A stretch of 62,549 nucleotides of DNA, counting the filler, from Candidatus Delongbacteria bacterium (lineage in GTDB: Bacteria > UBA4055): assembly GCA_016937995.1 (NCBI GenBank). It is 3 parts of 3 records of this genome, joined end to end, with 100 filler letters (N's around TTAATTAATTAA, not from the genome) between each part and the next. Parts side by side here need not be neighbours in the genome. Positions count along the whole stretch, not along the records: positions 1 to 31,460 come from JAFGVM010000074.1; 2 more parts are not named here. One strand, 5' to 3'. Positions 14,062 to 62,518 of the stretch are shown piece by piece. The position numbers and the translations under genes were made by a program. The notes beneath the pieces were generated by a model. The model did no database searches, had not been told where the DNA came from, and saw only the letters and a program-made list of their open reading frames with translations. Each line of letters opens with the position of its first letter. The first letter of the stretch is position 1.

Positions 14062-14091
14062 TTGACAAGTTAACAGCTTTAGGTTTATATT
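14062..14091 (+). promoter_or_regulatory. Putative sigma70 promoter of the parA-pil operon
   Basis: TTGACA-N18-TATATT. Confidence 0.5.
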
Positions 14092-14131: not shown

Positions 14132-14866
14132 ATGCGTAAAATTGCAGTTCTGTCATCAAAGGGCGGAACAGGTAAAACAACAACATCGATAAATCTGGCT
14201 CATGGTTTAGCTCTAATGGGTAGAAGTGTGCTTTTAGTTGACAGTGATCCTCAAAACACAATCGGTATCGTTTTCAACGTAAATCCTGAGAAAAATTTAT
14301 GTGATCTTCTTCTGAAGAGAAGAACAAGTATCACCAAAGTGCGTGAAAAACTTCATATTATAACTTCTGGAGGGAAGCAGTTAGTTGACACAGAAGTTAA
14401 GCTGACTAAAAAATTCGGAAAAGAATACAAGCTTAAAAAGAATCTGTCTCATTTGGAAGGTGTGGATTATATCATTCTGGATTGCGCTCCATCAATTAAC
14501 CTGATCAATGTGAACGTACTTACTTACTGTGATGAAGTGATCATCCCGATTGCAATGGATTTCTTATCTCAAATTGGGGCAAATCAAATATTAGGAATGA
14601 TCGATAATATCAGCAAATCGTATAATAAAAATCTTGACATATTAGGTGTTCTGCCGGTCTATTACAATGAGAAGAGAAAAATATCTTTGGAGACCGTTTC
14701 TATACTGAAAGAATTTTTTAAAGAAAAGTTATTCAATACATATATCAGAGAAGATGTGAATTTGAAAGAAGCACCAAGTTTTATGAAAACGATCTATGAA
14801 TATGCTCCTGATTCTATGGGTGCACAAGATTATTTTAAATTAGCTCAAGAAGTTGACAGTAGATAA
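14132..14866 (+). CDS. ParA/Soj family ATPase
   Basis: Deviant Walker A KGGTGKTT, DSDPQ, LDCAPS and EAPS; the MRKIA start is conserved in the second copy. Confidence 0.9.
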   Translation: MRKIAVLSSKGGTGKTTTSINLAHGLALMGRSVLLVDSDPQNTIGIVFNVNPEKNLCDLLLKRRTSITKVREKLHIITSGGKQLVDTEVKLTKKFGKEYKLKKNLSHLEGVDYIILDCAPSINLINVNVLTYCDEVIIPIAMDFLSQIGANQILGMIDNISKSYNKNLDILGVLPVYYNEKRKISLETVSILKEFFKEKLFNTYIREDVNLKEAPSFMKTIYEYAPDSMGAQDYFKLAQEVDSR

Positions 14867-14890
14867 ACTTAGTTTTTAAGGTATGATTTT

Positions 14891-16243
14891 ATGACTGATG
14901 ATCCTCAAAATGAATCAAAAAGCTTAGGTAGGAATATTTTCGCAGAAAATAAACCTCCAATTAGTGAAAAAAAAGTTGAAATTAAAACTAATGAAGATCA
15001 ACAACCTTCTGAATCGAGAAGTATAGGAAGGAATATGTTCTCAGAACCTTTAAAAGAACAAAGTTCTGCTGCTGGTGAATCAGGTGAATTTGAAATAAGG
15101 GAAAGTTCTTCCCTTCTTGATAAAACATCTAAAAAATCAAAGCCCGTTAAGAGTTCAGGAAAATCAAAACTCATAAATGCTCTTCATATCACGGATGAAA
15201 ACGTTGTGTTTGCTCAAACATTTTATGATGGTGCGAACTATAAATTATCCAATTTGCAAGTAGTTCCTATTGAACTGCCTAAGTTAACTGAAGAAAATGT
15301 GTTCAAAGATAAAGAAGATCCTATTATAGCCAGAAAAAGACTTCAGTTAGAAGCTATTAACAGAGTATTTTCAAATGCAGGGGTCTCAAAAAACGATCCG
15401 CATATAGTTTCGGCTCTAACCGGCAACAAAATTATCATAAAGGAAGTATTCTTAAAAAATACACCTGAAGAAAATATTGAAATTGAACTTCCGAAGGTTT
15501 TGCAATCTCCTTTTGATGCATTCAGCAGGTATGAGTATCTGAAACTCAGTTCAACAGGGACGGATCACAGGATTCTGGCTTCTATAGTTGACAGTAAAAT
15601 ATTTTTTGGGTATCAGTCTTTTCTTAACTCAGCAGAAGTTGAATGTAAGATACTGGATATTGACAAAATGGCTCTAATAAATCTGTATAATGAGTCAGTA
15701 AACCCGCCGATCGGGACTGTTGCCTGTATAATTGATATTGGAGAGGACAGTTCGAACATTATAATTGTTCCAAACGGTAACGAGGAACTTTATATCAGAA
15801 GTATAGATTTTACAGGTTCTCAATTTAGAAAGATGCTACAAAAGAACAGGGATATTTCTTCTGAAGAAACCGAAGAAATGTTAAGAACAAGAAATTTTTA
15901 TGATTACATTACCAAGGCTTTTGAGGCAGAAACTACTGAAAATCTAAACCAGCATTACGGTGTAAAAAAATATATCAGGATGCAGTTGTTAAGAGAATTA
16001 CAAAAGACATTCCAATATTATTCAGGTCAAAATCACAATAAAATACCTACAAAAATTTACGTTACAGGTAAAGCTGTTGGAATGAATAAATTCCCTCAAT
16101 TTATTACAAAGAATACAGATATACCTTGTGAATATTTAGATGTTGCAGGTTTTTTTGAGGGAGATGGAAATATGATCAAGTATGCAAATGAAACACAGGA
16201 TGTCTGCTATACTTGTCTTGGATTAGCTTTAAGGTATGAATAA
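14891..16243 (+). CDS. pilM: PilM-like (actin/FtsA fold) pilus assembly protein with N-terminal extension
   Basis: IIDIG, RELQKTFQYY, IYVTG and C-terminal GLALR; first gene of an MNOPQ-like cluster. Confidence 0.75.
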   Translation: MTDDPQNESKSLGRNIFAENKPPISEKKVEIKTNEDQQPSESRSIGRNMFSEPLKEQSSAAGESGEFEIRESSSLLDKTSKKSKPVKSSGKSKLINALHITDENVVFAQTFYDGANYKLSNLQVVPIELPKLTEENVFKDKEDPIIARKRLQLEAINRVFSNAGVSKNDPHIVSALTGNKIIIKEVFLKNTPEENIEIELPKVLQSPFDAFSRYEYLKLSSTGTDHRILASIVDSKIFFGYQSFLNSAEVECKILDIDKMALINLYNESVNPPIGTVACIIDIGEDSSNIIIVPNGNEELYIRSIDFTGSQFRKMLQKNRDISSEETEEMLRTRNFYDYITKAFEAETTENLNQHYGVKKYIRMQLLRELQKTFQYYSGQNHNKIPTKIYVTGKAVGMNKFPQFITKNTDIPCEYLDVAGFFEGDGNMIKYANETQDVCYTCLGLALRYE

Positions 16244-16273
16244 TATTTTTATAATAAAGGACGATCATAAAAC

Positions 16274-16909
16274 ATGTACAAATTTAATTTCTTACAAAAA
16301 ATAAACATTGAGAAGATAGAAACTAACAAAAGAAGTAAATTTATTACGACTGTCTTTACGATATCACTTTCTGCACAGTTATTGCTATTATCTCTACTAT
16401 ATTTAAAATCTTTGAACGTGAATTCCAGCTACGATACCGCAATACAGGAAAAGGAAAAACTTGAAGTTCAAACTAAAGAATTCAGAAAAAAAGATTTTAT
16501 TAGCTATAAAAATCTTCAGCATATTTATAACGTACAAACATCGAGGCGTCAGTTATCATACATATTTAAGTCCTTTGAAAATTCAGTTGATTCTACTGTG
16601 ATCATTGAGAGAGCTGATTATGAATCCTCTGAAATCAGGCTGGATATTATTTCAAGGTCAAGTGGTAGTAAGTCTAAGCTTATGAGTGAAATGAATATAA
16701 TAAAGAGCAGACTGAGTGAAGAACTGATATCTGAAAATTTTATTTCTAAAGCATCTGACATAGATCTGATCAGAGGTCCTGATCTAAAAAGTAAAGAAAA
16801 GAACAGTGACGGAACTCAATATTGGTCATTCAGTTATTTGATCAAAATGCAAAAGAATGCAGTTAACACTGTAAAGAAAAAACCTGTTGTACCGGAAGTC
16901 AAAATTTAA
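16274..16909 (+). CDS. PilN-like protein
   Basis: N-terminal FNFL resembling the PilN INLL PilM-binding motif; single TM then coiled coil; position after pilM. Confidence 0.6.
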   Translation: MYKFNFLQKINIEKIETNKRSKFITTVFTISLSAQLLLLSLLYLKSLNVNSSYDTAIQEKEKLEVQTKEFRKKDFISYKNLQHIYNVQTSRRQLSYIFKSFENSVDSTVIIERADYESSEIRLDIISRSSGSKSKLMSEMNIIKSRLSEELISENFISKASDIDLIRGPDLKSKEKNSDGTQYWSFSYLIKMQKNAVNTVKKKPVVPEVKI

Positions 16910-16934
16910 AATAACTTAGGTTAACCGTATATAT

Positions 16935-17516
16935 ATGAAAAGAGAATATTTATTTATACTTGTCACAATAGTTGTAGCTATCTTAGGATTGATCTACAAG
17001 GGAATGTTCGTTGCTGATAAACTGGATGAGACACAGAACATAATAATTGAGAATAATGATAGGTTGGCCAAATTCAAAAGAGATACACTAGTTCAGAGCA
17101 ATGCCAAAAACCTTGTTTTAATGAGGGAATTAAACAAAAGAGATAACAGAAGTTATGGCGAAGTCATAGCGGAATTGTTAAAAACTACTGAAGATATCCT
17201 GAAAGAATCAAATATCAAATATAATGTGAATGACATAAATCAGGAACAGGAATCAGCAAGTAATAAAAACTGGCCACAAATGAAAGAAAGTTTTTATATA
17301 AATGTTAATTTCACTACAAGCTACGAGAACTTAATGGTACTAATGAACACGATAGAAAGACATAAGTTATTAGTAAGTGTATCTTCTTTGTCTTATTTTC
17401 GTGCAAAACCAGTCAGAGATTCGAAAGAGAAAGGTCCCGGAGTACATGTTGACGAATATGCAATAAAAGCTCCACTTATTGTTACCATGAGATTAGAGTA
17501 CATAAAATTCTTATAA
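16935..17516 (+). CDS. PilO-like protein
   Basis: N-terminal TM; FTTSYENLMVLMNTIE resembles the PilO/GspM ferredoxin-like motif. Confidence 0.6.
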   Translation: MKREYLFILVTIVVAILGLIYKGMFVADKLDETQNIIIENNDRLAKFKRDTLVQSNAKNLVLMRELNKRDNRSYGEVIAELLKTTEDILKESNIKYNVNDINQEQESASNKNWPQMKESFYINVNFTTSYENLMVLMNTIERHKLLVSVSSLSYFRAKPVRDSKEKGPGVHVDEYAIKAPLIVTMRLEYIKFL

Positions 17517-17535
17517 CTTAGGATGATCATTAAAA

Positions 17536-18225
17536 ATGAAAGACTTTGATAAATTACAGATAGTAGTTATAATAATATCACTCATAGCAATTGCAGTAAC
17601 TGCTATTCAGGTGATCACTATGAACACAGAGATAAAAGATGAAGGTATGAGCAGATATCAGGCAAGTGTGGATAGTGTAAAGCAGTCAGACAGTATTTAT
17701 TTTAAATTCAAAACCAGTGAATTATTCACAGACAGAGATGCCAGTAATTTTAAGATCAAAGAGGTCAAAAAGGTTATTCAAGATAACAAACCTGTAGAAA
17801 AAAAGGTTGAAACTTATTGGGTCAATACAGGTATAGAATTATTCCCCAAAGATAAAGTCACATTTACGATGTTCTTTAACGACCAGGCTACTTTTAATAT
17901 TGACGGGAAAAATCAAAAACTTAAGGTAGGTGAGAAGTTAACGGTCGGAAATCTGATAATGAAACAGAAATATAAAGAATCTAATCAGTTTACAGGAAAT
18001 TCTAAGCTTGGGAATGAATACTCTGGAAAAATATTGGCAATAGCAGCAAGATATGTGTATGTAGAACATTATAAATCAAATTTAGCGATTAAATATAAAC
18101 CTAACCAAGACCCTACTGTTGTATCAAAGGATCTTGTTCCAACAGAGTCTTCTAATCAGGAAACATCTGACGAAAAAGACAATTCCGGTGATCAGGATGA
18201 TAAAAGTGGAAGAAGAAGAAGGTAA
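17536..18225 (+). CDS. PilP/GspC-like protein
   Basis: N-terminal anchor; NIDGK..LKVGEKL..GKILAI beta domain; directly before the secretin. Confidence 0.5.
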   Translation: MKDFDKLQIVVIIISLIAIAVTAIQVITMNTEIKDEGMSRYQASVDSVKQSDSIYFKFKTSELFTDRDASNFKIKEVKKVIQDNKPVEKKVETYWVNTGIELFPKDKVTFTMFFNDQATFNIDGKNQKLKVGEKLTVGNLIMKQKYKESNQFTGNSKLGNEYSGKILAIAARYVYVEHYKSNLAIKYKPNQDPTVVSKDLVPTESSNQETSDEKDNSGDQDDKSGRRRR

Positions 18226-18304
18226 GGTTGTAATCAGTCAGTTAAAAATAGTATCTTCATAATTGTATATAAAGAAAATAATTAATTTAATAGGGAGACG
18301 GATA

Positions 18305-19687
18305 ATGAAGAAGTTAATCGGAATGTTCCTGATGTTCTGTGTCAGTGCTTATTCTTTTGGCTCAACACTACTGTATGATACAACATCAGATAATTTCAAA
18401 ACTCCAATTTCTTTAACAGCTCTTGACCAGTCAGTTGCTCAAGTCTTAGATGCTCTTGCTGAAAGAGCTGGGGTCAATTTAGTTCAGAGTTCCGAAACAG
18501 TTGATAAGAAAGTTACACTCACTTTGAATGAAATACCCATCAAAGACGCTTTGGACCTTGTAGTAAGAGCTACAGATCTGAGCTATCAGATAATTGATAA
18601 CTCTATTATTGTTGCAACTCAAGCTAAAATTGACAGAGAGATTGGTTTAACAACATCAGTATTTGACCTGCAATATGCAGATGCAACATCTGTTAAAAAA
18701 ATGTTAGCCGACATTTCACAAAAAATACAGGTCGATGATCTGGGTAACAGAATAATTTATCAGGCCTCACCAAAAGTATCAAAAGAAATTGAAAAAGTAT
18801 TGATCAGAATTGACAGACCGCTTCAGCAGGTATTATTCAAAGCAAGGATTAAAGAAGTTGGTAACGAATCCGGTGAACGATATGGTATTGAGTGGGAAAA
18901 GATCAATAATTATTCAACCACTATCAGAGAAGGTGCATTTCAGGATTATGGTGTATGGAAATATGATGAAGCTGCAAATACTTACTCATTTGAATATGAC
19001 GAGGCAGATTGGCCTGTAAGAAATCTTTTCGGAAATTATACTGCAACTGAAGATTATAATTACTTCAGCCGTTCACCTTCATTTGCCAATGAAACAAATG
19101 CCGGATTTGCTAACCCTTGGCATAGAGTGATCGGTCAGGAATACGTTCTAAGTCTGGATTTTAAAAATAGAGATAACGATGCAACTATTCTTGCTGAACC
19201 TGAAATTGCGACTTTGAATAATAAAGAAGCTTATGTTCACATTGGAGATATTGTACCTTACACTGTAACTTCTGTAGAACAGGGAACAACAAAACAATCA
19301 GTTCAAAAAGAAGAGGTTGGTATTAAATTACGTGTTAGACCTATCATTAATGAAGAGAACGATATAACTGTTGAATTATCAACTGAAGTATCTTCAATTT
19401 TTGGATGGGTTGGTCCTAATTCAGAAATTCCTTGGGTAAAAGTTAGAAAAGCAAATACAACAGTTCGTGTCAGAGATGGACAAACTATTAGGATCGCCGG
19501 TATGTTATTAGAAGATGATACTTATACTGTTAATAAAGTTCCTTTATTGGGCGATATTCCTTTCTTGGGATATTTATTCCAGCATCAAGTAAGAACTAAG
19601 AAGATCACAAATCTGATAATCGAAGTAACTCCTTACATTATGATCGACGGAGAAATCGTAGTTGATGAAGAAGAGGAATTTGAATAG
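18305..19687 (+). CDS. pilQ: Secretin, PilQ/GspD family (STN + N domain + secretin)
   Basis: Signal peptide; LQYADA, AEPEIATLNNKEAYVHIG, KVPLLGDIPFLGYLF and EVTPYI motifs. Confidence 0.9.
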   Translation: MKKLIGMFLMFCVSAYSFGSTLLYDTTSDNFKTPISLTALDQSVAQVLDALAERAGVNLVQSSETVDKKVTLTLNEIPIKDALDLVVRATDLSYQIIDNSIIVATQAKIDREIGLTTSVFDLQYADATSVKKMLADISQKIQVDDLGNRIIYQASPKVSKEIEKVLIRIDRPLQQVLFKARIKEVGNESGERYGIEWEKINNYSTTIREGAFQDYGVWKYDEAANTYSFEYDEADWPVRNLFGNYTATEDYNYFSRSPSFANETNAGFANPWHRVIGQEYVLSLDFKNRDNDATILAEPEIATLNNKEAYVHIGDIVPYTVTSVEQGTTKQSVQKEEVGIKLRVRPIINEENDITVELSTEVSSIFGWVGPNSEIPWVKVRKANTTVRVRDGQTIRIAGMLLEDDTYTVNKVPLLGDIPFLGYLFQHQVRTKKITNLIIEVTPYIMIDGEIVVDEEEEFE

Positions 19688-19709
19688 ATCCAGAATAATT
19701 AGAAGCAGA

Positions 19710-20579
19710 ATGAAAATTCTGCTTCTTTTTTTTATATCATCATTATTTTTTAATTGCGCTCACACTTCTAGTGTGAGTTTTATTTATACTGGAAAAAGTA
19801 ACGGTATTCTTGAAAATTGTAATTGTCCTAAGAATATGTACGGTGGATTATTAAATCGCCTTTATTTTTTTAAACAGAATAAAGATTCAGTAGACCTGTT
19901 CATAGATGCTGGAGATATCTTTTCCTATAGAAAAGATGAAAACATAAATAATATTATATGTGAAATATTACCGGAATTTAATTATTCTGCGATTACACCA
20001 GGAGAGCTAGATCTGGATAAAATAAGCTCCATTACCGATCTTGCAATATCACAAAATATCAGTAATTTGAAAAAGGAAATATTTCTTGATGTGAATGGTG
20101 TTAAAATATGTGTCACAGGAGCAATAGATCCATCATTTATAAAATACGATAAGAACCATAAAATAATTGAAAATGTTGATCTGAACAGCATAATAAATTA
20201 CAATAAATCATTGAAAATCAGATCTGATATTTTAATTTTTCTTTCCCATATGGAAGTTGAAAATGAAAGAATATTATTTATGGAAAGCACTGATATAGAT
20301 GTAATGGTATCGGGTCATAGCGGTATAAGAACTTATGAAACTTTTGATAACAGAGTATATGTTTCTCCCGGAAGAAATTCAGAGTATGTCGGTATACTTA
20401 AACTTATTATGAACAAGAATTCTAAAGGAATGTATAATATTGAAGAACTTAGGAACAGATTCCATTCAATGCATATTGATTCAATTCCTGAAGACATTGG
20501 TGCCAGAATGCTGGTCGACAGTATGAAAAGTATAAATAAGATAGATATGAAAACAGAGAAAGATAATGATTATGAATAA
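19710..20579 (+). CDS. Lipoprotein, 5'-nucleotidase/UshA-like metallophosphoesterase N-domain with CxC motif
   Basis: Lipobox LFFNC; GILENCNCP..GGL, DAGD, LSHM and IDVMVSGH motifs. Confidence 0.7.
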   Translation: MKILLLFFISSLFFNCAHTSSVSFIYTGKSNGILENCNCPKNMYGGLLNRLYFFKQNKDSVDLFIDAGDIFSYRKDENINNIICEILPEFNYSAITPGELDLDKISSITDLAISQNISNLKKEIFLDVNGVKICVTGAIDPSFIKYDKNHKIIENVDLNSIINYNKSLKIRSDILIFLSHMEVENERILFMESTDIDVMVSGHSGIRTYETFDNRVYVSPGRNSEYVGILKLIMNKNSKGMYNIEELRNRFHSMHIDSIPEDIGARMLVDSMKSINKIDMKTEKDNDYE

Positions 20580-21618
20580 AATATTATCAGTTATTCTGCT
20601 ACTGACAATGTTCTTGTCACTCAATAGTAAGATATTGACAAATATTGAAGGTGTTGGTATCGCAGACAATAAACTGGAAGCTTTGTTTCAGGCTAAAAGA
20701 GATGTATTGGAAAAAAGTTTTGGCTTGATCCTTTCTTCAAAGAGTATTGCTAAAAATAATATGATAATTAATGACAGGCTTTTAATCAAATCAGAAGGCT
20801 ATATAAAAAAGTATGATATTGTTAAAGAATCTTTTGATGAGGGAATTTATCATACCACAATTAAGGCTGAAGTCACAGATCTTTTGGACGACATACTTAA
20901 AGATGAATTTGCAAAAAAGTTCCTTATCTTAGAAATGGGTTTCCCTAAATTCGGAGTAATTATTACTACGAAAGATAGTCTAAGAGAGAACTTTGCTGAA
21001 AATATCATCATTGATAATTTTATGAGATCATATTTTGATGTTCATAAGATAAATGATGAAAATTCAGATGAGCCTGATAAAGTAGATTTTATAATTGAGG
21101 GATCTGTGGATTACTCTACCAGTAAAATAAGCTCTTATAATATTGAGAATATGTATTCAGTACATACTCAAATAGAATGTCAAATCAGAGCAGCAGGCAA
21201 CGATAAAATTATCTCATCTGAAATATTTAAAACGAAGAAAGCTCATTTTGATTCGGTCGAAGCTAAAAGACAATCAATAGCATTGTGTTCGGATATGATA
21301 TCCAAATATTTAATTGAGGATTCAATTGAGAAATGGAGTAAATATTTTAATGAAGAGACAAGAAAATTAGATATTGTAATAAAAAATATTTCTTATGAAA
21401 CTTCTGAAAGATTACTGGCGGAACTGAATTATTTATTCAGTGGTACAGAATCAGTTTGTGCCAATGATTATCATGAACGCCACAGAACAATTATTATCAA
21501 TTCATTTATGAACGGGAACGATATCCTTGAAACTATTAAAAAATTTCTGTTAAAACATGATCATAAGGTCAGAGTAGAATCAGTAAATGAAAGTTGTATA
21601 AATCTAGAACTGATCTAA
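20566..21618 (+). CDS. Exported protein with FlgT-N/LPP20-like N-terminal domain
   Basis: Signal peptide; EGVG..EALFQAKRDVLE..SEGYIKKYDIV pattern. Confidence 0.5.
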   Translation: MIMNKILSVILLLTMFLSLNSKILTNIEGVGIADNKLEALFQAKRDVLEKSFGLILSSKSIAKNNMIINDRLLIKSEGYIKKYDIVKESFDEGIYHTTIKAEVTDLLDDILKDEFAKKFLILEMGFPKFGVIITTKDSLRENFAENIIIDNFMRSYFDVHKINDENSDEPDKVDFIIEGSVDYSTSKISSYNIENMYSVHTQIECQIRAAGNDKIISSEIFKTKKAHFDSVEAKRQSIALCSDMISKYLIEDSIEKWSKYFNEETRKLDIVIKNISYETSERLLAELNYLFSGTESVCANDYHERHRTIIINSFMNGNDILETIKKFLLKHDHKVRVESVNESCINLELI

Positions 21619-31460: not shown

Positions 31461-31560
31461 NNNNNNNNNNNNNNNNNNNNNNNNNNNNNNNNNNNNNNNN
31501 NNNNTTAATTAATTAANNNNNNNNNNNNNNNNNNNNNNNNNNNNNNNNNNNNNNNNNNNN
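31461..31560. other. Contig-joining linker (N-TTAATTAATTAA-N)
   Basis: N runs flanking a six-frame stop linker; identical in design to 55987-56086. Confidence 0.95.
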
Positions 31561-43293: not shown

Positions 43294-43956
43294 ATGAAAT
43301 TAAAAACTACGGTAGTGTTATTACCCGATTTAAAGATCAAGCGCTCTGAGCTGCATAAAGTAAGAGGATTTTTCTCTTCGAAATATAATGAAAATAATCT
43401 GATACATAATCACGATGGCGATAAGTTCATCCACAGATATCCTGCAGTTCAATTTAAAACAATAGATAATATTTTGTATATTTATTCTTTCTCTTCAGAT
43501 ACTGAAGATGTTTTTAAGGATATCTTTCTAACAGACTATGAACTTGATATAGAAGGGAAGAAGTATAGTATTAATGAAAAGCAGATCGAAGTCAAAGATC
43601 TTGAACTGAATGATAGTGAAGATTATTTCAAATATGAATTTTATTCTCATTGGATAGCCTTAAATCAAAAGAACTTTGAAGAATACATGAAATTAAAATT
43701 TCAGGATGAAAAAGACGCAAAATTAAAATCAATTATAATCCAGAATATAATCTCAGTCTGTAAATTTGCAGGATATACGATACAAAATAAGCTTGAAGTT
43801 AAAGAATTGAATTTAAAACCCGTAATGACTAATTTAAAAGGAATGGAAATTCTTGCATTCAAAGGTGATTTTGAGATTAATTTTATATTACCGGATTACA
43901 TAGGACTAGGCAAAAGTGTATCAAGAGGATTTGGGAATGTCAGGAGAGTGAAATGA
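43294..43956 (+). CDS. cas6: CRISPR endoribonuclease Cas6 (Cas6b type)
   Basis: LIHNH, HRYPAVQFK, WIALNQ and Gly-rich loop IGLGKSVSRGFG. Confidence 0.92.
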   Translation: MKLKTTVVLLPDLKIKRSELHKVRGFFSSKYNENNLIHNHDGDKFIHRYPAVQFKTIDNILYIYSFSSDTEDVFKDIFLTDYELDIEGKKYSINEKQIEVKDLELNDSEDYFKYEFYSHWIALNQKNFEEYMKLKFQDEKDAKLKSIIIQNIISVCKFAGYTIQNKLEVKELNLKPVMTNLKGMEILAFKGDFEINFILPDYIGLGKSVSRGFGNVRRVK

Positions 43957-45617
43957 ATGAAAACGAACTAAAAAATTATTTAATTCAGAATTATCCTGTC
44001 GAAGATGAGACCTGTGAATGGAAAGAGTTTTATTCTTTGAAGCACAGCACTTCCGGTGACGAAGGGAAAGATATTGTTTCTTATATATCCGCAATCTCAA
44101 ACATGAACGGCGGGCAATTAGTTGTAGGCGTAGAAGATCAAACTATGAATATTAGTGGTATTAAGGATTTTAACAAATTCAATAAAATCAGGATTAAGCT
44201 TAAAATACTTCTTGATTGCACAAATTTAAGTTCGGAAAAATTTGAAATTGAAGAATTTATTACAGATGATACTCATAAAATCGTTTGGATTTTTCATATT
44301 CCAAAGCACACATACAGACTTCCTGTTTATGCGCACAGAAAAGCTTGGCAAAGAATTGGTGACAGTCTTGTTGAAATGACCCGCGTTAGATTAAATACAA
44401 TTCTTTCCGAAGTCAGACCATCAGAGGATTGGTCAGCTGAAATAATAAATGAAGCTTCTTTAGAAGATCTTGACCCTCAGGCAATTGAAAAGGCAAGAAT
44501 TGAATTTAAAAAGAGAAATTCAAAGTATAGAGATGAAGTTGACAAATGGGATGATAAAAAATTTCTTAACAAGGCTAAAATTACAAAGAAAGGGAAAATT
44601 ACCCGTACCGCTATGATTTTACTGGGAAAAGATGAGGAGGAGCATTTCCTTGGTTCATGTGTAAAAATAAGGTGGAATCTCAAAACTATTGATAATCAGG
44701 ATAAAGACTTTGAAATATTCTCAATCCCCTTTCTGCTAACCGTGGATGATGTATGCAAAAAGATCAGAAATTTAAAATATCGTTATTTACGAAAAGGTTC
44801 GATGTTCCCTGACGAATTTTTGAAATACGAACCGTTTTCTATCAGGGAAAGCATTCACAACGCTTTAGCGCATCAGGATTATTCTTACGGTGCCAGAATA
44901 AATGTAGTTGAAATTGAAGACGATCATTTGATTTTTTCAAATTACGGATCGTTTCTACCAAAGTCTGTTGAAGATGTGGTTTTAAAAGATTCTCCCGAAG
45001 AATTATACAGAAATCCGTTCCTTGTCGAAGCCATGAAAAACCTTGATATGATTGAAACTCAGGGTGGCGGTCTAAGGAAAATATTCAATTTCCAAAAACA
45101 ACGATTTTTCCCGATGCCAGATTTTGATTTCTCAGATAACAAGGTAAAGGTAATTATTACCGGAAAAGTAATTGACGATGAATTTGCGGATATTCTTATT
45201 CAAAATCCAAATATTTCAATGAGTGATATTCTTTTACTGGACAAAGTTCAAAAGAAAAAATATATGTCGGACGATGAATTTAAATACCTGAAAAAAATGA
45301 AATATGTTGAGGGTCGAAAACCGAATATTTACATTTCAAAGGATGTACTTGAGCCAGTCAAAGATGAAACGATGAAAGCTGATTACATTAGAAATAAAGG
45401 TTTCGATGATACTTACTGCAAAGATTTAATTCTTAATTACATTAAAGAATGGGGGAGCATCACCAGAAATCAGGCTGAAAAATTGTTATGGGATAAACTA
45501 TCGGATGTTCTGTCTGATGAATCAAAGAAGAATAAAGTACAAAATTTATTCCAAAAACTTAAGAGTGAGAATCGAATATCATTGGGTAAAAGAAAAAAAT
45601 GGGAATTAAAAAAGTAA
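43953..45617 (+). CDS. Schlafen/AlbA_2 + HATPase_c_4 + winged-HTH protein
   Basis: EDETCEWKE..SAISNMNGGQLVVGV (AlbA_2); RESIHNALAHQDY, RNPFLVEAM, IETQGGG (HATPase_c_4); C-terminal ILNYIKEWGSITR (wHTH). Confidence 0.82.
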   Translation: MNENELKNYLIQNYPVEDETCEWKEFYSLKHSTSGDEGKDIVSYISAISNMNGGQLVVGVEDQTMNISGIKDFNKFNKIRIKLKILLDCTNLSSEKFEIEEFITDDTHKIVWIFHIPKHTYRLPVYAHRKAWQRIGDSLVEMTRVRLNTILSEVRPSEDWSAEIINEASLEDLDPQAIEKARIEFKKRNSKYRDEVDKWDDKKFLNKAKITKKGKITRTAMILLGKDEEEHFLGSCVKIRWNLKTIDNQDKDFEIFSIPFLLTVDDVCKKIRNLKYRYLRKGSMFPDEFLKYEPFSIRESIHNALAHQDYSYGARINVVEIEDDHLIFSNYGSFLPKSVEDVVLKDSPEELYRNPFLVEAMKNLDMIETQGGGLRKIFNFQKQRFFPMPDFDFSDNKVKVIITGKVIDDEFADILIQNPNISMSDILLLDKVQKKKYMSDDEFKYLKKMKYVEGRKPNIYISKDVLEPVKDETMKADYIRNKGFDDTYCKDLILNYIKEWGSITRNQAEKLLWDKLSDVLSDESKKNKVQNLFQKLKSENRISLGKRKKWELKK

Positions 45618-45773: not shown

Positions 45774-45855
45774 AAATGTGCGAGCGGTTTGGAATGCGAC
45801 CGAACATAAGTCGGTTACAAATTTGAACCAGTAGAAATAAAAAAGGAAAAGTGAA

Positions 45856-46023: not shown

Positions 46024-46073
46024 CAGGTTAAGAATATTAAGATGGTAAATAGAAAAGAAAAAAGAGGTAATCT

Positions 46074-55986: not shown

Positions 55987-56086
55987 NNNNNNNNNNNNNN
56001 NNNNNNNNNNNNNNNNNNNNNNNNNNNNNNTTAATTAATTAANNNNNNNNNNNNNNNNNNNNNNNNNNNNNNNNNNNNNNNNNNNN
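55987..56086. other. Contig-joining linker (N-TTAATTAATTAA-N)
   Basis: N runs flanking a six-frame stop linker. Confidence 0.95.
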
Positions 56087-56177: not shown

Positions 56178-57092
56178 CTAATAATCAGGTGAGAGATCAG
56201 GTTTGTCTATTCCATATTTCAATTTCAGACTGTCCGTGTATGCTTTCAACTCTGCATCTTCACTGAATTTTACGGAAGTAATTTTTTCAAACATATTTTT
56301 GAATCCGACCCCGTCTGCAGTTTTACTGATATCAAGCCTGCCGATTTGCTCCGCACTGCTGCCGTGGCTTAGATAAAGTCTTTTGCCGAACCTGATCATT
56401 TCATTTTTCGTGTTTGTATTCGATATCATTATATCAATAGCTTTAACACTATTGAATATTTTTTTCTCAGCCGAACTTTCCAGATTGGATATGACTATAA
56501 AAACATCTGCTTCAGCTTTGATCGAATCAGCCAGAATATTCAATTTTTCAAACGAGATATCAGAAATGCCTGAATCAGAGGAGTATTTTGAATATAACGG
56601 ATCCGTTATTGACGTAACCGCTAGCGTCAGTCCGTTTCGTTGAAAGAGCTTATGATCTGGAACATCATCTACATTAAATGACGCAGCAGTGTTTTTATCA
56701 AGTCTTCTGTAAAAACCTGTCTCGTTCCTTCCTGCAGCAATGTAATCATATCCCAGATCCCCGATTATCTCGAGAATTATCCTGTTTTGTCTGTCTCCGA
56801 AATTATAGGAAAAAATATTACCTGTGCAAACATAGATGCTGTTCTTAAAATTAATGATGCTGTCTTTATAAAATGTGACGTGATTAAGAATATTCCCTTC
56901 AGGTTCCTTTGGGCAACGGCAGCCTTCGATTATACCATTATAATTCCCGGTGTAGAATAGAGTCATATTTTTAGACGATGAACATCCTGATATCAATATG
57001 ATAAATGAAAGAAGCAGGATCAACCTGCTTCTTCCAAAATGACAAATATTACTTATTTTATTAATCAAAAAGCTCATCTTCGTCAAGAACAA
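56178..57092 (-). CDS. Lipoprotein, UshA-like metallophosphoesterase fold with CxC motif (copy 2, degenerate)
   Basis: Lipobox LISGC; YTGNYNGIIEGCRCP; same position after the secretin as 19710-20579. Confidence 0.65.
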   Translation of the reverse strand: MFLTKMSFLINKISNICHFGRSRLILLLSFIILISGCSSSKNMTLFYTGNYNGIIEGCRCPKEPEGNILNHVTFYKDSIINFKNSIYVCTGNIFSYNFGDRQNRIILEIIGDLGYDYIAAGRNETGFYRRLDKNTAASFNVDDVPDHKLFQRNGLTLAVTSITDPLYSKYSSDSGISDISFEKLNILADSIKAEADVFIVISNLESSAEKKIFNSVKAIDIMISNTNTKNEMIRFGKRLYLSHGSSAEQIGRLDISKTADGVGFKNMFEKITSVKFSEDAELKAYTDSLKLKYGIDKPDLSPDY

Positions 57093-58425
57093 CCTCTCCG
57101 TCGATCATTATGTAAGGCGTTATCTCAATTATCAGATTAGTAGTTTTCTTCGTTTTAACCTGATGCTGGAAAATATATCCCAGGAAAGGAATATCTCCAA
57201 GAAGAGGAAGTTTGTTCACAGTGAATGTCTCGTCTTCAAGAAGCATACCGCCTATCCTGATTGTCTGTCCGTCACGAACCCTTACTGTTGTATCTGCCTT
57301 TCTTGTTTTGACCCATGGTATCTCTGAATTCGGTCCCACCCATCCGAAAATGGAAGATACTTCTGCTTCAAGTCTTACAGTTATGTCATTCTCTTCATTG
57401 ATGATAGGTTTAACTTTAAGTTTAACACCTACTTCTTCTTTCTGAACTGACTGAGTTGAAGTTCCCTGGGTAACTGTTGTTATTGTATAAGGAACAATAT
57501 CGCCAATATGAACATAAGCCTCTTTGTTGTTCAAAGTAGCAATTTCAGGTTCAGCAAGCACAAGAGCATCATTATCTCTGTTCGCAAAATCAAGGCTCAA
57601 AATATATTCCTGACCGATCACTCTGTGCCATACTGTATTAAGTCCGCTGGAAGTTTCATGAAAAGGTGAATTATCCATAAAAGTTACATCATCCGAATAA
57701 TCACCCCCGATATTTCTTACTGGGAAAGATGTGTTATCATAAGTAAAAGTCCATCCGTCTGTATAGTTTCCAGACCAGGTCCCCCAATCCTGATAAGCTC
57801 CTTCCCTCAAAGTAGTCGTGTAATTATTTATCTTTTCCCATTCAATTCCGTATCTTGCTGAAACATCGTTACCGACTTCTTTTATTCTTGCTTTAAATAA
57901 GACCTGCTGAAGTGGTCTGTCGATCCTGACAAGTACTTTTTCTATCTCCTTTGCCACCTTCGGACTAGCCTGATATATCAGTCTGTTGCCCAGTTCATCG
58001 ATCTGAACCATTTTCGATATATCTGCGAGCATGGATTTAGCGGTCTTGGCATCTGCGTACTGAAGATCGAAAACAGAAGTGTTCAGACCTATCTCTCTGT
58101 CTATCTTCTTTTGCGTAGCAACAATAATCGAGTTATCTATTATCTGATAACTAAGGTCTGTTGCCCTCACCACAAGATCCAAAGCATCTTTAATAGGGAT
58201 CTCGTTCAAAGTTAAAGTAACCTTTTTCCCGATCGTTTCTTCACTCTGTACAAGGTTAACACCGGCTCTCTCGGCAAGAGCATCCAGCACCTGGGCTACT
58301 GACTGATCCAGAGCAGTAAGTGAAATCGGAGTTTTGAAATTGTCCGATGTAGTGTCAAAGAGAAGCTGAGAGCTGAAGACAAGCCCTGTAAAGACGGTCG
58401 TTATCAATACCATAATCCTTTTCAT
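57061..58425 (-). CDS. pilQ: Secretin, PilQ/GspD family (copy 2)
   Basis: Long identical stretches with 18305-19687; KLPLLGDIPFLGYIF. Confidence 0.9.
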   Translation of the reverse strand: MKRIMVLITTVFTGLVFSSQLLFDTTSDNFKTPISLTALDQSVAQVLDALAERAGVNLVQSEETIGKKVTLTLNEIPIKDALDLVVRATDLSYQIIDNSIIVATQKKIDREIGLNTSVFDLQYADAKTAKSMLADISKMVQIDELGNRLIYQASPKVAKEIEKVLVRIDRPLQQVLFKARIKEVGNDVSARYGIEWEKINNYTTTLREGAYQDWGTWSGNYTDGWTFTYDNTSFPVRNIGGDYSDDVTFMDNSPFHETSSGLNTVWHRVIGQEYILSLDFANRDNDALVLAEPEIATLNNKEAYVHIGDIVPYTITTVTQGTSTQSVQKEEVGVKLKVKPIINEENDITVRLEAEVSSIFGWVGPNSEIPWVKTRKADTTVRVRDGQTIRIGGMLLEDETFTVNKLPLLGDIPFLGYIFQHQVKTKKTTNLIIEITPYIMIDGEVVLDEDELFD

Positions 58426-58481
58426 TTATACACCCTCCTGAATAATTTAGTATTCTTATTTCAATAAAATAGCTTGGTTGA

Positions 58482-59177
58482 TTATCTTCCCGGCCTTGGT
58501 ATTCTTCTGCCCGGCACATCACCTCCCTGAGGAGTATCCTGATTTTCCTGGCCTGAAGTAGCTTCCATAAGATTTCTTGCATAATAGTCTCCGTCAATGC
58601 CCGGTCGAAATCTTACGACCCTGTTCTTATCCTCAGTATTTACATAAACAGATCGTTCAGTTATTGATAATATGTCACCCAGATACTCACTTCCGGTTCT
58701 GGTGTTGCCTGTTGACTGGTTGGTTCCTGAGACTACCTGTTTCTGTATCTTTTTTCCGATAGCAATCTTATCTCCAACCTTAAACTCCTGTGTTTTGCCG
58801 TTAATGCTGAATCTTGCCTTGCCGTCAAAAAAAAGTGAGAATGAAACTACATCCCTTGTATATAACTCAAGTTCGTTTGTATTTATCCACGAATACTGTA
58901 TCTGAGGAGTATTGTCAGTTTCATGTACAACATCGATCTTTTTTTTCTCAATAATCTTGAAATTGAATATATCTCTTATTTTTTGAGCTTCAGCTTTTGA
59001 AAATTTTGTTATTATAGTGTCAGTTATAAGCACGCTGTCCTTACTTAATTTATATATCTCAGAAATTCTTGAAGAATCAGTATCTTGTTTTATCGTAATC
59101 AAAAGGTATGCCATGATCAGAACACAGATTGAGGAGATTATTATTATAGATATTTGCTGCTTTGAAAAATTCTTCAT
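58482..59177 (-). CDS. PilP/GspC-like protein (copy 2)
   Basis: Homologous to 17536-18225 (WINT..EL, FSINGK..FKVGDK, NQSTGN..G.EY.G.IL.I). Confidence 0.5.
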   Translation of the reverse strand: MKNFSKQQISIIIISSICVLIMAYLLITIKQDTDSSRISEIYKLSKDSVLITDTIITKFSKAEAQKIRDIFNFKIIEKKKIDVVHETDNTPQIQYSWINTNELELYTRDVVSFSLFFDGKARFSINGKTQEFKVGDKIAIGKKIQKQVVSGTNQSTGNTRTGSEYLGDILSITERSVYVNTEDKNRVVRFRPGIDGDYYARNLMEATSGQENQDTPQGGDVPGRRIPRPGR

Positions 59178-59195
59178 TTAAAAATTCCCACCTTA

Positions 59196-59774
59196 TTATA
59201 AGAATTTCACGAATTCAAGTCGTATATCACACTGAATAGTACTTTTTACATTGAATTCATCAAAATCGTCTTTTTCTAATGTATCCATATTTTTTGGTGC
59301 AGAAACCTTGTTTCTATTAATTCTTAACGCAGCAATATTTATCACATGATCACTTTTTTCAATTCTGTTAATAAAATCTCTCATCTGGTCGTAACCAGTC
59401 TCAAAACTCATTATTATAATAAAAGTTGCCGTTCCTGATTTTGGATCATTTATTTCATTCGGGTCCTGATTTATCCTATTTGCCTCATAAGTAATCTTTG
59501 AGTCTTTCAGCATATTCTCTACAACGCCCAATAGCTCAACTATTATATCCCCGTATGAGCTTGATCCTCTCTTATTAATTTCATATTTTGCCTTAATGTT
59601 TGAAATGTTGTTTTGAATAAATACATCCCTGTTGTATTTTTCCATTAGTATTTTATTCTCTGAAGAAACAGAAGCTGTTTCGTTTATTGAATCTGCAAGG
59701 AAAAAAAATCTGTAAACTAAACCCAGCACTAACAGAATTACGGGCACTATGATATAAATAATGTTTTTCTGCAT
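59196..59774 (-). CDS. PilO-like protein (copy 2)
   Basis: Homologous to 16935-17516 (SYGDIIVELL, RLEFVKFL). Confidence 0.6.
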   Translation of the reverse strand: MQKNIIYIIVPVILLVLGLVYRFFFLADSINETASVSSENKILMEKYNRDVFIQNNISNIKAKYEINKRGSSSYGDIIVELLGVVENMLKDSKITYEANRINQDPNEINDPKSGTATFIIIMSFETGYDQMRDFINRIEKSDHVINIAALRINRNKVSAPKNMDTLEKDDFDEFNVKSTIQCDIRLEFVKFL

Positions 59775-59776
59775 TT

Positions 59777-60376
59777 CTATTTACCTTTTGCCAAGTTATT
59801 GACTCTATCTGGGATTTTCAGATTGAAAACAAAAGACCAATATGTGAACTCTTCAAACTGTTTTCTGATATCGGGTCCTTTAACTAATGTCAGATTGTTT
59901 TTATCGCAAATTCCGTAGCTTATAAGTTTACCTTCCACTCTATCCTTGAAAGTAATTATCCAAGACATGAGTTGTGATTTAACATTAGAACTTCTTGAGA
60001 TAAAAGTAATTTCAATAAAATTCTCTTCATACTGAAAATTGTTTAAAATAACTGTTGAATCCATTGAGGATTCGAATTCCTGAAAAACATCAGAAATCTT
60101 TTTTCTTTTTGTCATGGAATTATACATATTCTGAGAAAGCCGGTAATTAAAATAATCTTTTGATCTAAGTTCCTTTATCCTGCTGTTAATCTCCTCATTT
60201 GCTTCTTTTGCAAGTCTGTTATCAGTGTTGACACTTAGACCAAACAGATATAACAACCCAAGAAGAAGAAGCATTACTGAGCTGAAGCATATAAACAGCA
60301 GCCTTATGAAGTTGTCTCTTTTCCTGGCTTCATACTTTTCCTGATTGATCTTGTTTAGAAAATTAAATTTGTACAT
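59777..60376 (-). CDS. PilN-like protein (copy 2)
   Basis: MYKFNFL, DSTVI, ISRSS, GPD and YWSF shared with 16274-16909. Confidence 0.6.
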   Translation of the reverse strand: MYKFNFLNKINQEKYEARKRDNFIRLLFICFSSVMLLLLGLLYLFGLSVNTDNRLAKEANEEINSRIKELRSKDYFNYRLSQNMYNSMTKRKKISDVFQEFESSMDSTVILNNFQYEENFIEITFISRSSNVKSQLMSWIITFKDRVEGKLISYGICDKNNLTLVKGPDIRKQFEEFTYWSFVFNLKIPDRVNNLAKGK

Positions 60377-60396: not shown

Positions 60397-61761
60397 TTAT
60401 TCATATCTCAAAGCCAGACCGATAGCTACATATGCAACACTTTCTTTTTCCTTGGCATAATCCAAAACACTTGAATCACCCCTGAAGAATCCGGCAACAT
60501 CAAGATTTTCGCAGGGTATATCAGTGTTCTTGTTGATGAACTGGGCGAATTTATTCATCTCCAGAGCCTTGCCTGTAATGTATATCTTTGAAGGAATTTT
60601 GTTCTGGTTCTGCTGCGCATAGTACTGAAAGGTCTTCTGAAGCTCTCTGAGCAGCTGCATCCTGACATACTTTTTTACTGAAAAATGCTGATTCAGATTT
60701 TCTGTTGTTTCCTGTTCGAATGCACTGGTTATGTAATCGTAAAAATTCCTGTTCCTTATCATTTCTTCAGTTTCTGCAGGAGAAATATCTCTGTTTCTCT
60801 GAAGTGTTTTTTTGAAGACATTATAGGTAAAATCAATATTTCTGATGTAAAGCTCTTCACTGCCGCTTGGTATTATCATTATGTGAGAAAAGTCCATTCC
60901 TATGTCAATAACGCAGGATACTGTACCTTTCGGCGGTCTTACAGATTCATTATACAGGTTTACTATCGCTATTTTGTCAATATCAAGTATTTTACACTCC
61001 ACTCCCGTAAGCGTTAACATTCCCTGAACAGAAAAGAACGTGCTCCCGTCAGAGACAGCTGCGAGGATATCATGATTCATTCCGTCAGAATTTAAAAGTA
61101 TGTATTCATAACGGCTCATGACGTCAAAAGGGGATTTTACTATAGAAGGAAGTTCTTTCTCAATATTCTCCACGGGCGTATTCTGGACATATAGCTGTTT
61201 AACAATAACGTTCGTACCGTTCAGCGACGTTACTATGAGAGGATCGTTTTTAGCGACGCCAGCCCTTACAAAAACTTTATCGATCGCATCGATCTGCTGC
61301 TCTTTTATTACCTGATCCGGATCTTTTTTATCCTTAAAAACGTTATCCTCTGTGATCTGTGGAGGCTCAATCGGGATGACCTGCAGATTAGTAAGCCTGT
61401 AATTTATTCCGTCAAACTCAGTTTGAGCAAAGACCACATTATCTTTTGTTATATGAAGCGCATTAACCCTGCTTTTTTTTGCAGATGCGGAAACAGAGGG
61501 ACTTTTATCTGAACTGGTATCCTTTGAAGTCTTTTCGATTATTTTAAGGTCCTCTCCAATATCCGCAGGTCTCGAAGGCGGCACCTGTGCGTTGGGGACT
61601 TCAGAAAAAATATTTCTTCCTATGCTCTTTGGAGACGCGTCACTTTTCTTCGGTGTTTCCTGTGATTTTTTATCAGTCTTATTCTTAAAAAAATCAGACT
61701 GATTTTCTGCGAAAATGTTCCTTCCTATACTCTTTGATTCTCTGCTCGGATCGTTTGCCAT
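60397..61761 (-). CDS. pilM: PilM-like protein with N-terminal extension (copy 2)
   Basis: Homologous to 14891-16243; VIDIG, RELQKTFQYY and GLALRYE. Confidence 0.75.
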   Translation of the reverse strand: MANDPSRESKSIGRNIFAENQSDFFKNKTDKKSQETPKKSDASPKSIGRNIFSEVPNAQVPPSRPADIGEDLKIIEKTSKDTSSDKSPSVSASAKKSRVNALHITKDNVVFAQTEFDGINYRLTNLQVIPIEPPQITEDNVFKDKKDPDQVIKEQQIDAIDKVFVRAGVAKNDPLIVTSLNGTNVIVKQLYVQNTPVENIEKELPSIVKSPFDVMSRYEYILLNSDGMNHDILAAVSDGSTFFSVQGMLTLTGVECKILDIDKIAIVNLYNESVRPPKGTVSCVIDIGMDFSHIMIIPSGSEELYIRNIDFTYNVFKKTLQRNRDISPAETEEMIRNRNFYDYITSAFEQETTENLNQHFSVKKYVRMQLLRELQKTFQYYAQQNQNKIPSKIYITGKALEMNKFAQFINKNTDIPCENLDVAGFFRGDSSVLDYAKEKESVAYVAIGLALRYE

Positions 61762-61783: not shown

Positions 61784-62518
61784 TTATCTGCTGTCAACTT
61801 CATTTGCGAGCTTGAAATAATCTTGAGCGCCCCATGAATCCGGTGCATACTCAAATATAGTTTTCATAAAGCTCGGTGCTTCTTTAAGGCTGACATCTTC
61901 TCTGATGTAGGTGTTAAACAGTTTCTCTCTAAAGAAGTCCTTTAGAATCGCGACCGTTTCGAGAGATATCTTTCTTTTTTCGTTGTAGTAAACAGGCAGC
62001 ACACCCAGAATATCAAGGTTTTTATTATACGATTTGCTGACGCTGTCAATCATGCCCAGGATCTGATTAGCTCCGATCTGAGAAAGAAAATCCATCGATA
62101 TGGGTATAACTACTTCATCGCAGTAAGTCAGAACATTTACATTGATAAGATTAATAGACGGCGCACAGTCGACGATCACATAATCCACACCTTCAAGATG
62201 TGAAAGATTCTTTTTGAGCTTATATTCCTTACCCCATGTCTTCGTCATTTTTACTTCTGTATCGACAAGATATTTACCGCCTGAAGTGATAACATGAAGT
62301 TTTTCCCGGACTTTGACTATTGATGCTCTCCTTTTAAGTAAAAGATCGCACAGAGTTTTTTCCGGATTGACGTTGAACACGATCCCGATCGTGTTTTGAG
62401 GATCGCTGTCAATAAGGAGAACACTTCTTCCCATCAACGCTAACCCGTGAGCAAGATTGATCGAAGTAGTGGTCTTTCCGGTGCCGCCCTTTGAAGATAA
62501 AATCGCAATTTTACGCAT
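61784..62518 (-). CDS. ParA/Soj family ATPase (copy 2)
   Basis: KGGTGKTT; about 23 substitutions in 244 aa versus 14132-14866 (manual count). Confidence 0.9.
   Translation of the reverse strand: MRKIAILSSKGGTGKTTTSINLAHGLALMGRSVLLIDSDPQNTIGIVFNVNPEKTLCDLLLKRRASIVKVREKLHVITSGGKYLVDTEVKMTKTWGKEYKLKKNLSHLEGVDYVIVDCAPSINLINVNVLTYCDEVVIPISMDFLSQIGANQILGMIDSVSKSYNKNLDILGVLPVYYNEKRKISLETVAILKDFFREKLFNTYIREDVSLKEAPSFMKTIFEYAPDSWGAQDYFKLANEVDSR

Follow-up and report, generated by a model that had tools for sequence, protein, structure and literature searches.

Introduction

What is a chromosome-partition-type ATPase doing at the head of a type IV pilus gene cluster? The question is raised by a stretch of DNA from Candidatus Delongbacteria (GCA_016937995.1) in which a gene for a Soj/ParA-type ATPase opens a pilMNOPQ-like cluster at two loci; the whole stretch, 62,549 nt with positions 1 to 31,460 taken from JAFGVM010000074.1, is called the window below. 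On our best reading of the gene linkage, the conservation and a short sequence resemblance, the N-terminal tail of PilM is the partner of this dedicated ParA, which suggests that Delongbacteria place or control type IV pilus machines with a chromosome-partition-type ATPase. To our knowledge, the number and position of type IVa pili are understood in only a few model species, by way of PilQ AMIN domains, FimV and polar landmarks.

Linkage of parA and pilM

The initial annotation placed a Soj/ParA-type ATPase without an adjacent parB at the head of the cluster in both copies, and the open reading frames (ORFs), their translations and a Pfam scan agree with this at both loci. Copy 1 (14132-20579, + strand) comprises seven same-strand genes with short gaps or slight overlaps. 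The order at both loci is ParA, PilM, three bitopic proteins, a secretin and a phosphoesterase lipoprotein, and no ParB was found among the 48 ORFs of the window scanned with Pfam. The features on which the argument turns are listed here.

14132..14866, + strand: parA copy 1, 244 aa, deviant Walker A; start taken at the conserved MRKIA
14891..16243, + strand: pilM copy 1, 450 aa; tail residues 1-91, actin-like core residues 92-450
14915..14947, + strand: tail motif 1 of copy 1, SKSLGRNIFAE, residues 9-19 (six-frame pattern match)
15014..15046, + strand: tail motif 2 of copy 1, SRSIGRNMFSE, residues 42-52 (six-frame pattern match)
61784..62518, - strand: parA copy 2; 91% identical to copy 1 and 100% to loci L003 and L024
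60397..61761, - strand: pilM copy 2, 454 aa
61705..61737, - strand: tail motif 1 of copy 2, SKSIGRNIFAE
61600..61632, - strand: tail motif 2 of copy 2, PKSIGRNIFSE

Comparisons were made with the 15 searchable genomes of the phylum of locus L001 (G001-G015); related loci and related proteins carry L and P numbers. The parA gene ends 5-26 nt before pilM at 19/19 complete pilM 5' ends with upstream DNA, a count that leaves out a twentieth locus (L026) with 13 nt upstream only, and tblastn located parA upstream of pilM at five more places (L006, L010, L011, L015 and L031). A search for parA directly upstream of pilM therefore returned this arrangement at all 24 places that could be judged, which are not independent, several loci being the same contig from two collections. 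At the genome level the two genes are adjacent in all 11 of the phylum genomes in which both were found, while three of the 15 have neither gene and one has only a ParA fragment at a contig end.

The ParA domain spans the 244-aa protein end to end, scoring 132 bits against AAA_31 (cut-off 27) and 78 bits against CbiA (cut-off 25), and among proteins of solved structure it comes closest to T. thermophilus Soj (1WCV, E 3e-35) and to M. xanthus ParA (8RAY, E 6e-34). Residues K10, G11, G12, G14, K15 and T16 of the Walker A motif SSKGGTGKTT are invariant in alignment A3, as are D37/D39 of motif 2, which align with D58/D60 of M. xanthus ParA, and D117 of Walker B. The NCBIfam ParA_partition equivalog gave 87 bits, below its cut-off of 180. 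A further 106 ParA relatives at 44-50% identity (P0324-P0429), some of them named Latescibacterota or Krumholzibacteriota, have the residues C57 (71/106), R206 (106/106) and R/K212 (104/106) and lack the canonical DNA-binding arginine; together with the ParA studied here they form a ParA subfamily that is distinct in sequence.

Whether this ParA is merely the chromosomal one in a new place can be judged from the genomes that also encode ParB. ParB_N was found in 2/15 phylum genomes (G005 and G006) and in 0/13 crown-group and other genomes. These two basal genomes both carry a canonical parA-parB pair whose ParB is complete (HTH_ParB, ParB_N and ParB_C) plus, elsewhere, a parA-pilM-...-secretin cluster, and their pilM-linked ParA is 57% identical to the window ParA, compared with 35-37% to the Soj beside ParB. 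No second Soj-like ParA was found at E 1e-10 in the other 13 genomes. Because a parA-pilM pair stands beside a canonical parA-parB pair and the two ParAs are distant from one another, the pilM-linked ParA is not simply a displaced chromosomal Soj; judged by its sequence, it is a dedicated paralogue. Crown-group ParAs are 89-100% identical across genomes in which TopA is 65-82% and GcvPB 73-88% identical, and this conservation above that of TopA points to many constrained surfaces; between the pilM-linked ParA of G005 and that of G006, identity is only 65%.

A search of 5.8 billion proteins returned only two Delongbacteria-like ParB clusters, the next hits being 45% identical, and the phylum may largely lack ParABS, as far as 15 genomes of unstated completeness can indicate. 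In the crown group, where neither ParB nor Soj was found, the pilM-linked ParA might be the chromosome-segregation ATPase, with the PilM tail replacing ParB and the machine tethering the nucleoid. The confinement of ParB_N and of a second Soj-like ParA to the same two genomes, the two lone ParB clusters, the tighter conservation of ParA in the ParB-less crown group (89-100%) than between the two ParB-bearing genomes (65%) and the restriction of the second motif copy to the crown group would all fit such a role. However, the pattern amounts to a single evolutionary event seen in metagenome-assembled genomes of unstated completeness, the equivalent of the DNA-binding arginine is missing, no centromere-binding function is evident in PilM and many bacteria live without ParABS, so that we consider a chromosome role improbable. 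Similarly little weight is given to a combined scheme in which one ParA cycle both spaces pilus machines and couples the nucleoid, a form of partition without a centromere-binding protein in which the tandem PilM peptides would take the role of ParB.

A conserved motif in the disordered tail of PilM

The second gene product is a PilM by both profile and fold. It scores 46 bits against PilM_2 (cut-off 27) and 65.8 bits, under the cut-off of 133, against TIGR01175, and its core in an AlphaFold2 (AF2) model matches the PilMs of P. aeruginosa, M. xanthus and T. thermophilus at E 5e-20 to 2e-17, with 5EOX, 5EOU, 3JC8 and 2YCH as the top Foldseek matches. The model, built with 15 sequences, has a predicted local distance difference test (pLDDT) value of ~85 in the core and <50 over residues 1-91, so that the N-terminal tail of about 90 aa is predicted to be disordered. 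The nucleotide motifs of PilM, described at first as degenerate, were altered at two of three positions when aligned to solved PilMs: the phosphate-1 motif INALHIT aligns with LLGIDIS (Asp to His) and the adenosine motif TGKAV with SGGTA (GG to GK), whereas the phosphate-2 motif DIG is retained.

The tail carries the motif twice in each PilM, and the four peptides originally quoted are the only four matches to [LIVM]GR[NG][LIVM]F in a six-frame translation of the window. Among 15 family members, column identity is 0.89 in motif 1 and 0.77 in motif 2, compared with 0.41 in the other parts of the tail and 0.73 in the folded core, which bears out the description of the tail as poorly conserved outside the motif; G13, R14, F17 and E19 are invariant in the same 15. 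The core of the motif is widespread in the family, with [LIVMFY]G[RK]x[LIVMF] occurring in the first 30 residues of 38/42 unique family tails. The same 5-mer was found in 3/138 representatives of canonical PilMs, which have no tail, in 4/256 N-termini of other ORFs and in 11/840 shuffled tails, counts to be read with the relatedness of the tails and the choice of the motif after it had been seen in mind. The motif is thus far from equally present in PilMs without parA. Between motif 2 and the core, at about residues 64-72 (within 14891-15163), there is a third, weaker patch of consensus [ED]LKIIEK.

Distant family members have a single motif (SIGRNIF in P0032, VYGRNIF in P0034, VLGRNIF in P0036, KLGRVLF in P0037, KIGRDLF in P0038 and KTGRDLF in P0029), and G-R is retained in the N-terminal motif of 8/10 full-length representatives. 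The two-motif tail is limited to the crown group, where the motif starts are 32-38 residues apart. In a DNA pattern search of five genomes, GRNIFxE occurred in no coding frame other than pilM; of four DNA matches outside pilM, one is interrupted by a stop within the motif, and the other three fall in short frames that have no start codon ahead of it. The PilM family is narrow: among 1.84 billion representatives, 1421 score E <= 1e-3, 152 score <= 1e-10 and only 11 score <= 1e-30, after which the scores of full-length proteins fall from 322 bits to the 89 bits at which ordinary PilMs of ~350 aa set in. The related proteins and loci are named Candidatus Delongbacteria, with a few labelled Cloacimonadota, UBP11, "Bacteroidia" or "Clostridiales".

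A short motif next to a conserved neighbour could also be a coincidence, that is, an unrelated short linear element or a constraint on the translation initiation region that has no functional connection with parA. The brevity of the motif and the shared ancestry of all its instances leave room for this, but the motif is conserved at the protein level across PilMs that are 31-77% identical while their DNA varies synonymously, and its second copy lies 100 nt downstream, far from the start codon. We regard a lack of any connection as very improbable.

Resemblance of the PilM tail to the ParB tip

ParB proteins offer a direct comparison for the tail. After a K/R-rich run, [LIVMF]G[RK]G[LIVMF] occurs in the first 40 residues of 105/120 listed ParBs, and in PilM, too, a basic run at the extreme N-terminus precedes the core h-G-[RK]-x-h (h, hydrophobic), with ESKSLGRNIF at residues 8-17; the two motifs share positions i, i+2 and i+4. 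The ParB N-termini read MSMNSEKKLGKGLDSLF in G006 and MAINSEKKLGKGLGSLF in G005, and those of PilM MSENSEKKIGRDLFGNE in G005 and MTDNSEKKLGRVLF in P0037; within one genome, NSEKKLGKGL of ParB can be set against NSEKKIGRDL of PilM. In M. xanthus, according to the available part of PMC12462528, the residues on which the ParB motif depends are L11, L15, L18 and I19, grouped about a central R13, and the ParA dimer has two face-to-face ParB sites at which linked peptides are far more stimulatory than single ones. The tandem PilM motif would, by analogy, be compatible with this two-site logic.

The receiving surface on ParA was assessed by mapping M. xanthus residues by hand through the alignment with 8RAY, a structure whose identity as M. 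xanthus ParA was confirmed, with the offset fixed by the position of D60A and the register of positions 57/58 taken from the MAFFT alignment A3. Five of the six positions of the hydrophobic pocket are hydrophobic or aromatic here, V116, L150, L152, L155 and L192 of M. xanthus corresponding to V89, I122, L124, V127 and Y164. A prediction of the complex of a ParA dimer, two ATP, two Mg and PilM residues 1-60, run without controls, scored 0.21 and 0.30, both under the mark of 0.32, and speaks neither for nor against the contact.

Several observations weigh against a ParB-like contact between ParA and the tail. The PilM motif has F at i+5 followed by A-E-N in place of the ParB hydrophobics at i+7/i+8. 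A hidden Markov model (HMM) of the ParB N-peptide, built from 48 unique peptides, gave a median of -3.1 bits for the 42 tails and -3.5 bits for 394 controls, 169 of which reach the median of the tails; only P0037 (6.0 bits) scored above every control. The HMM thus does not separate tails from controls, which limits the likeness to about five residues. The DNA pattern EKKhG[KR] had 7 and 2 hits in G005 and G006, compared with 5 and 5 for the reversed-pattern control, and being as frequent as its control it is useless as a statistic. Within the family, the motif of the G006 PilM reads IIPRDIF, P0033 (locus L031) has NIGFDLL, with the arginine lost and parA kept upstream, and P0035 has no recognisable motif. 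On the ParA side, the sixth pocket position, L187 of M. xanthus, is N159, and the arginine-docking residues Y81, E82, D110 and E117 are C57, D58, Q83 and K90, so that a single acidic residue is kept; the DNA-binding R238 corresponds to N210 (N, S or A in the clade). All instances, moreover, descend from one ancestor, making the co-occurrence of parA and motif a single evolutionary observation, and binding of the tail and stimulation of the ATPase by it are inferred.

Taken together, the proposal that the PilM tail serves as the ParA partner is partly supported by the linkage, the conservation of the motif and the likeness to the ParB tip, and it is qualified by the negative HMM result and the replaced docking residues. 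The replacements could reflect a remodelled private interface or, equally, the lack of any such interface. All pilM-linked ParAs have K90, where the canonical Soj proteins of G005 and of G006 have E; as pure conjecture, E19 of PilM might face K90.

These same points raise the question of whether the tail motif was shaped by another partner (a motor ATPase, a regulator or a membrane component), with ParA acting elsewhere and the adjacency reflecting shared regulation. The negative ParB profile, the unconserved arginine-docking residues, the relative that lost the motif arginine and kept parA, and the third conserved tail patch, LKIIEK, are consistent with this alternative. It nevertheless fits poorly with an invariant linkage across a gap of 5-26 nt, with the ParB-like placing of the motif, behind a basic run at the very N-terminus, with its closeness to the ParB tip of the same genome and with the fact that the cluster contains no other candidate partner gene for ParA. 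We think it unlikely that the motif serves only a different partner.

Possible DNA binding and possible output of ParA

What the ATPase would do once bound to PilM depends in part on whether it binds DNA. In M. xanthus ParA, the substitution R238E abolishes DNA binding (PMC12462528, available part), and with this arginine replaced by N210, nucleoid-based positioning is not assured. R206 and R/K212, near the canonical DNA-binding site, are conserved across the subfamily, so that a loss of DNA binding would not follow from the replacement.

ParA could bind the PilM tail as a nucleotide-dependent switch that licenses assembly, comparable to FlhG at the C-ring of flagella or to TadZ at the platform of Tad pili, its ATP-bound dimer bridging PilM tails and gating assembly of the platform or access of the PilB/PilT motors. 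With the canonical DNA-binding arginine missing (N210) and no C-terminal amphipathic helix, ParA has no obvious matrix; the nucleotide site of PilM is degenerate, so that an external ATPase could supply regulation; PilB- and PilT-type ATPase genes lie elsewhere in 5/5 related genomes searched; and a gene for a CheY-type receiver is found just upstream of the cluster in G005 and G006. The subfamily-wide conservation of R206 and R/K212 argues in the other direction, and the data do not tell switching from placing. A purely switching role seems to us rather doubtful.

Under the positioning model, ATP-bound ParA dimers would dock on the h-G-R-x-[IL]-F peptide at the tip of the disordered cytoplasmic tail of PilM, and in the crown group the two motifs, 32-38 residues apart, could fill both symmetric sites of one ParA dimer. 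Through rounds of binding, hydrolysis and release, the machines that span the envelope would then be distributed or placed, much like other cargo of ParA-type ATPases. In this scheme we infer that ParA touches the tail and is stimulated by it, that the outcome is positioning, and which matrix, the nucleoid or another, ParA uses; we hold the model, in which ParA contacts the tail and places pilus machines, to be plausible rather than probable.

Comparison with known systems

The arrangement shares with ParABS (T. thermophilus Soj, 1WCV/2BEK; M. xanthus ParA, 8RAY) the ATPase fold and motifs, an ATPase gene in first place with that of the partner second, and a putative partner peptide at the disordered extreme N-terminus. 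In contrast to ParABS, the candidate partner is PilM in place of a DNA clamp or CTPase, parS logic is lacking, the ParA has no equivalents of Y81, D110, E117 and R238, and the peptide, without the +7/+8 hydrophobics, is missed by the ParB profile. With the canonical PilMNOPQ of P. aeruginosa, M. xanthus and T. thermophilus it has in common the PilM fold, the gene order, the bitopic FN[FL]L gene and the secretin. It differs in the extra parA as first gene, the 91-residue PilM tail, the degenerate phosphate-1 and adenosine motifs, an AMIN-less secretin, middle genes without a family match and a phosphoesterase lipoprotein gene in last place.

Among pilus systems, one parallel is TadZ, which has an N-terminal receiver-like domain. 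Unlike the MinD-like TadZ/CpaE of Tad loci, the protein described here is a bare 244-aa Soj-like ATPase in a pilMNOPQ-type cluster, and its proposed link is the ParB-like PilM peptide. TadZ/CpaE, a ParA/MinD-family ATPase encoded at the Tad (type IVc) pilus locus, is needed for polar placement or assembly, and the available part of the 2024 review that describes it names VirC1, CpaE/TadZ and BcsQ only as ParA/MinD examples in secretion or pilus machinery (PMC11407121). In the PomZ-PomX/PomY, McdA-McdB, ParC-ParP and FlhG systems, the ATPase-activating element resides not on DNA but on a protein, either the cargo or an adaptor, and PomX acts through an N-terminal peptide (PMC7993993, PMC13170346 and PMC12139897, each in the part available); in contrast to what is proposed here, none of the PomZ, McdA, ParC and FlhG systems has a type IVa pilus platform as cargo. 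Among the papers listed in literature searches, none described a ParA coupled to PilM, as judged by titles, abstracts and selected passages and with supplements not covered, and among the Delongbacteria papers listed, none was on pili by title or abstract.

If the pairing is real, an ATPase of the ParA type with an activating peptide grafted onto PilM would be a different, built-in and directly testable solution to positioning, and a secretion or pilus platform would join the list of ParA/MinD cargoes. It would also illustrate how a docking peptide of the ParB kind can move to another protein while the surface of ParA is remodelled, possibly avoiding cross-talk with ParABS, and the near-absence of ParB in the phylum sharpens this question.

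The remaining genes of the cluster

The other features of the cluster are given below; PilN, PilO and PilP are so named for their position and topology.

14062..14091, + strand: promoter-like site TTGACA-18-TATATT upstream of parA; consensus match only, 11/12
16274..16909, + strand: PilN-position gene, 211 aa, bitopic, N-terminus MYKFNFLQK (gene order, topology)
16935..17516, + strand: PilO-position gene, 193 aa, bitopic (gene order, topology)
17536..18225, + strand: PilP-position gene, 229 aa, bitopic (gene order, topology)
18263..19687, + strand: secretin (PilQ-like), 474 aa, with STN, Secretin_N and Secretin domains
19662..20579, + strand: calcineurin-like phosphoesterase lipoprotein, the conserved last gene; probable start ATG 19710
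56178..60376, - strand: rest of copy 2, in the same gene order as copy 1
59777-60376, - strand: PilN-position gene of copy 2
59196-59774, - strand: PilO-position gene of copy 2
58482-59177, - strand: PilP-position gene of copy 2
57061-58425, - strand: secretin of copy 2
56178-57092, - strand: phosphoesterase of copy 2

Promoter-like sites are not in excess across the region (44 found against 41.8 expected), and no terminator-like site was found between 14091 and 19700. The secretin is identified by scores of 143 bits for Secretin and 33 bits for STN; the TIGR02515 PilQ model gave 194.6 bits against a cut-off of 284, and the GspD NCBIfam model also remained under its cut-off. A Pfam scan of the secretin listed no AMIN domain, the element that recruits PilQ to the poles in M. 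xanthus (PMC10653833, available part).

Family profiles gave no match for the PilN-, PilO- or PilP-position proteins of the window. The FN[FL]L stretch at the N-terminus of the PilN-position protein resembles the INLLP motif of PilN, and the PilO-position orthologue in G006 has a borderline T2SSM_b score (21.9 bits, cut-off 21.7). In the PilP-position protein, a transmembrane helix and a second helix precede a beta-rich domain (residues 93-197), and the C-terminal tail is basic; a fold search with the model of this protein returned 0 matches at E <= 0.001, PilP (2IVW) ranking 23rd at E 0.22. On our reading, the cluster encodes PilM, three bitopic proteins and PilQ as the alignment and secretin part of a type IV pilus-like machine, and along with them a ParA/MinD-family ATPase dedicated to that machine. 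Since PilB- and PilT-type ATPases are encoded elsewhere in the related genomes searched, it is probably one half of a type IV pilus system, the half that supplies alignment and the secretin.

Copy 1 is preceded by topA and followed, past one extra ORF, by gcvPB. That ORF (20566-21618, 350 aa), which separates gcvPB from the phosphoesterase gene, begins with a stretch resembling a signal peptide and matches LipL46 only weakly; the syntenic loci of relatives lack it, and there gcvPB directly follows the phosphoesterase gene. A hairpin with an 11-bp stem and a T-run (19701-19726) lies just past the secretin stop and over the probable phosphoesterase ATG (19710), and could be an attenuator or translational control element. 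In G006, the gene in the phosphoesterase position (L014 10966-12030) encodes several CxxCH haem-binding motifs and has weak multihaem cytochrome matches, whereas the window versions are without them.

In G005 and G006, the parA-pilM cluster is preceded by the CheY-type receiver gene and a gene for a 285-297-aa protein (L014 4165-5456; L015 1155-2405). We take the FQDITSQQ stretch of this protein to resemble the active-site region of CheZ; the 297-aa protein upstream of parA in G006 had no CheZ match in Pfam.

Composition of the window and the two copies

Two artificial contig linkers run through the window, each of the form N44-TTAATTAATTAA-N44.

31461-31560: artificial linker between contigs
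55987..56086, no strand: artificial linker, setting copy 2 apart from the rest of the window

The window is accordingly a pseudo-molecule of at least three contigs from one bin, and features that span a linker are not physically linked. The first contig carries copy 1, and the third carries copy 2. Close matches to copy 2 exist at L003 and L024 (ParA 100%, PilM 95-96% and secretin 94-98% identical), lineages that have a single locus in the topA ... gcvPB synteny of copy 1. None of the 15 searchable phylum genomes has two loci, and the double hits in G005, G011 and G015 are each one gene split across contig ends. Two loci of the same gene order, as the initial annotation had it, are therefore real, but a duplication within one genome does not follow from copies on different contigs. 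The copies more likely represent two populations in one bin than paralogues, and two copies per genome are probably a binning artefact; paralogy was set aside as unproven, given the separate contigs and the match of copy 2 to a single locus elsewhere.

The proteins of copy 2 differ in how closely they follow those of L003 (ParA 100%, PilM 95%, PilN 64%, PilO 61%, PilP 77% and secretin 94% identical), and those in the PilN and PilO positions diverge much faster than their neighbours (window 56178-60376 compared with L003 and L024).

The middle contig of the window carries a type I-B-like CRISPR-Cas locus (43294-55986). Its genes encode Cas6b, a Schlafen/AlbA_2 protein, Cas8b/TM1802, Cas7, Cas5, Cas3, DUF6933, Cas1, Cas2 and a PD-(D/E)XK (Cas4-like) protein, and they are followed by an array of 13 repeats of 37 nt with spacers of 35-38 nt, which the end of the contig cuts off.

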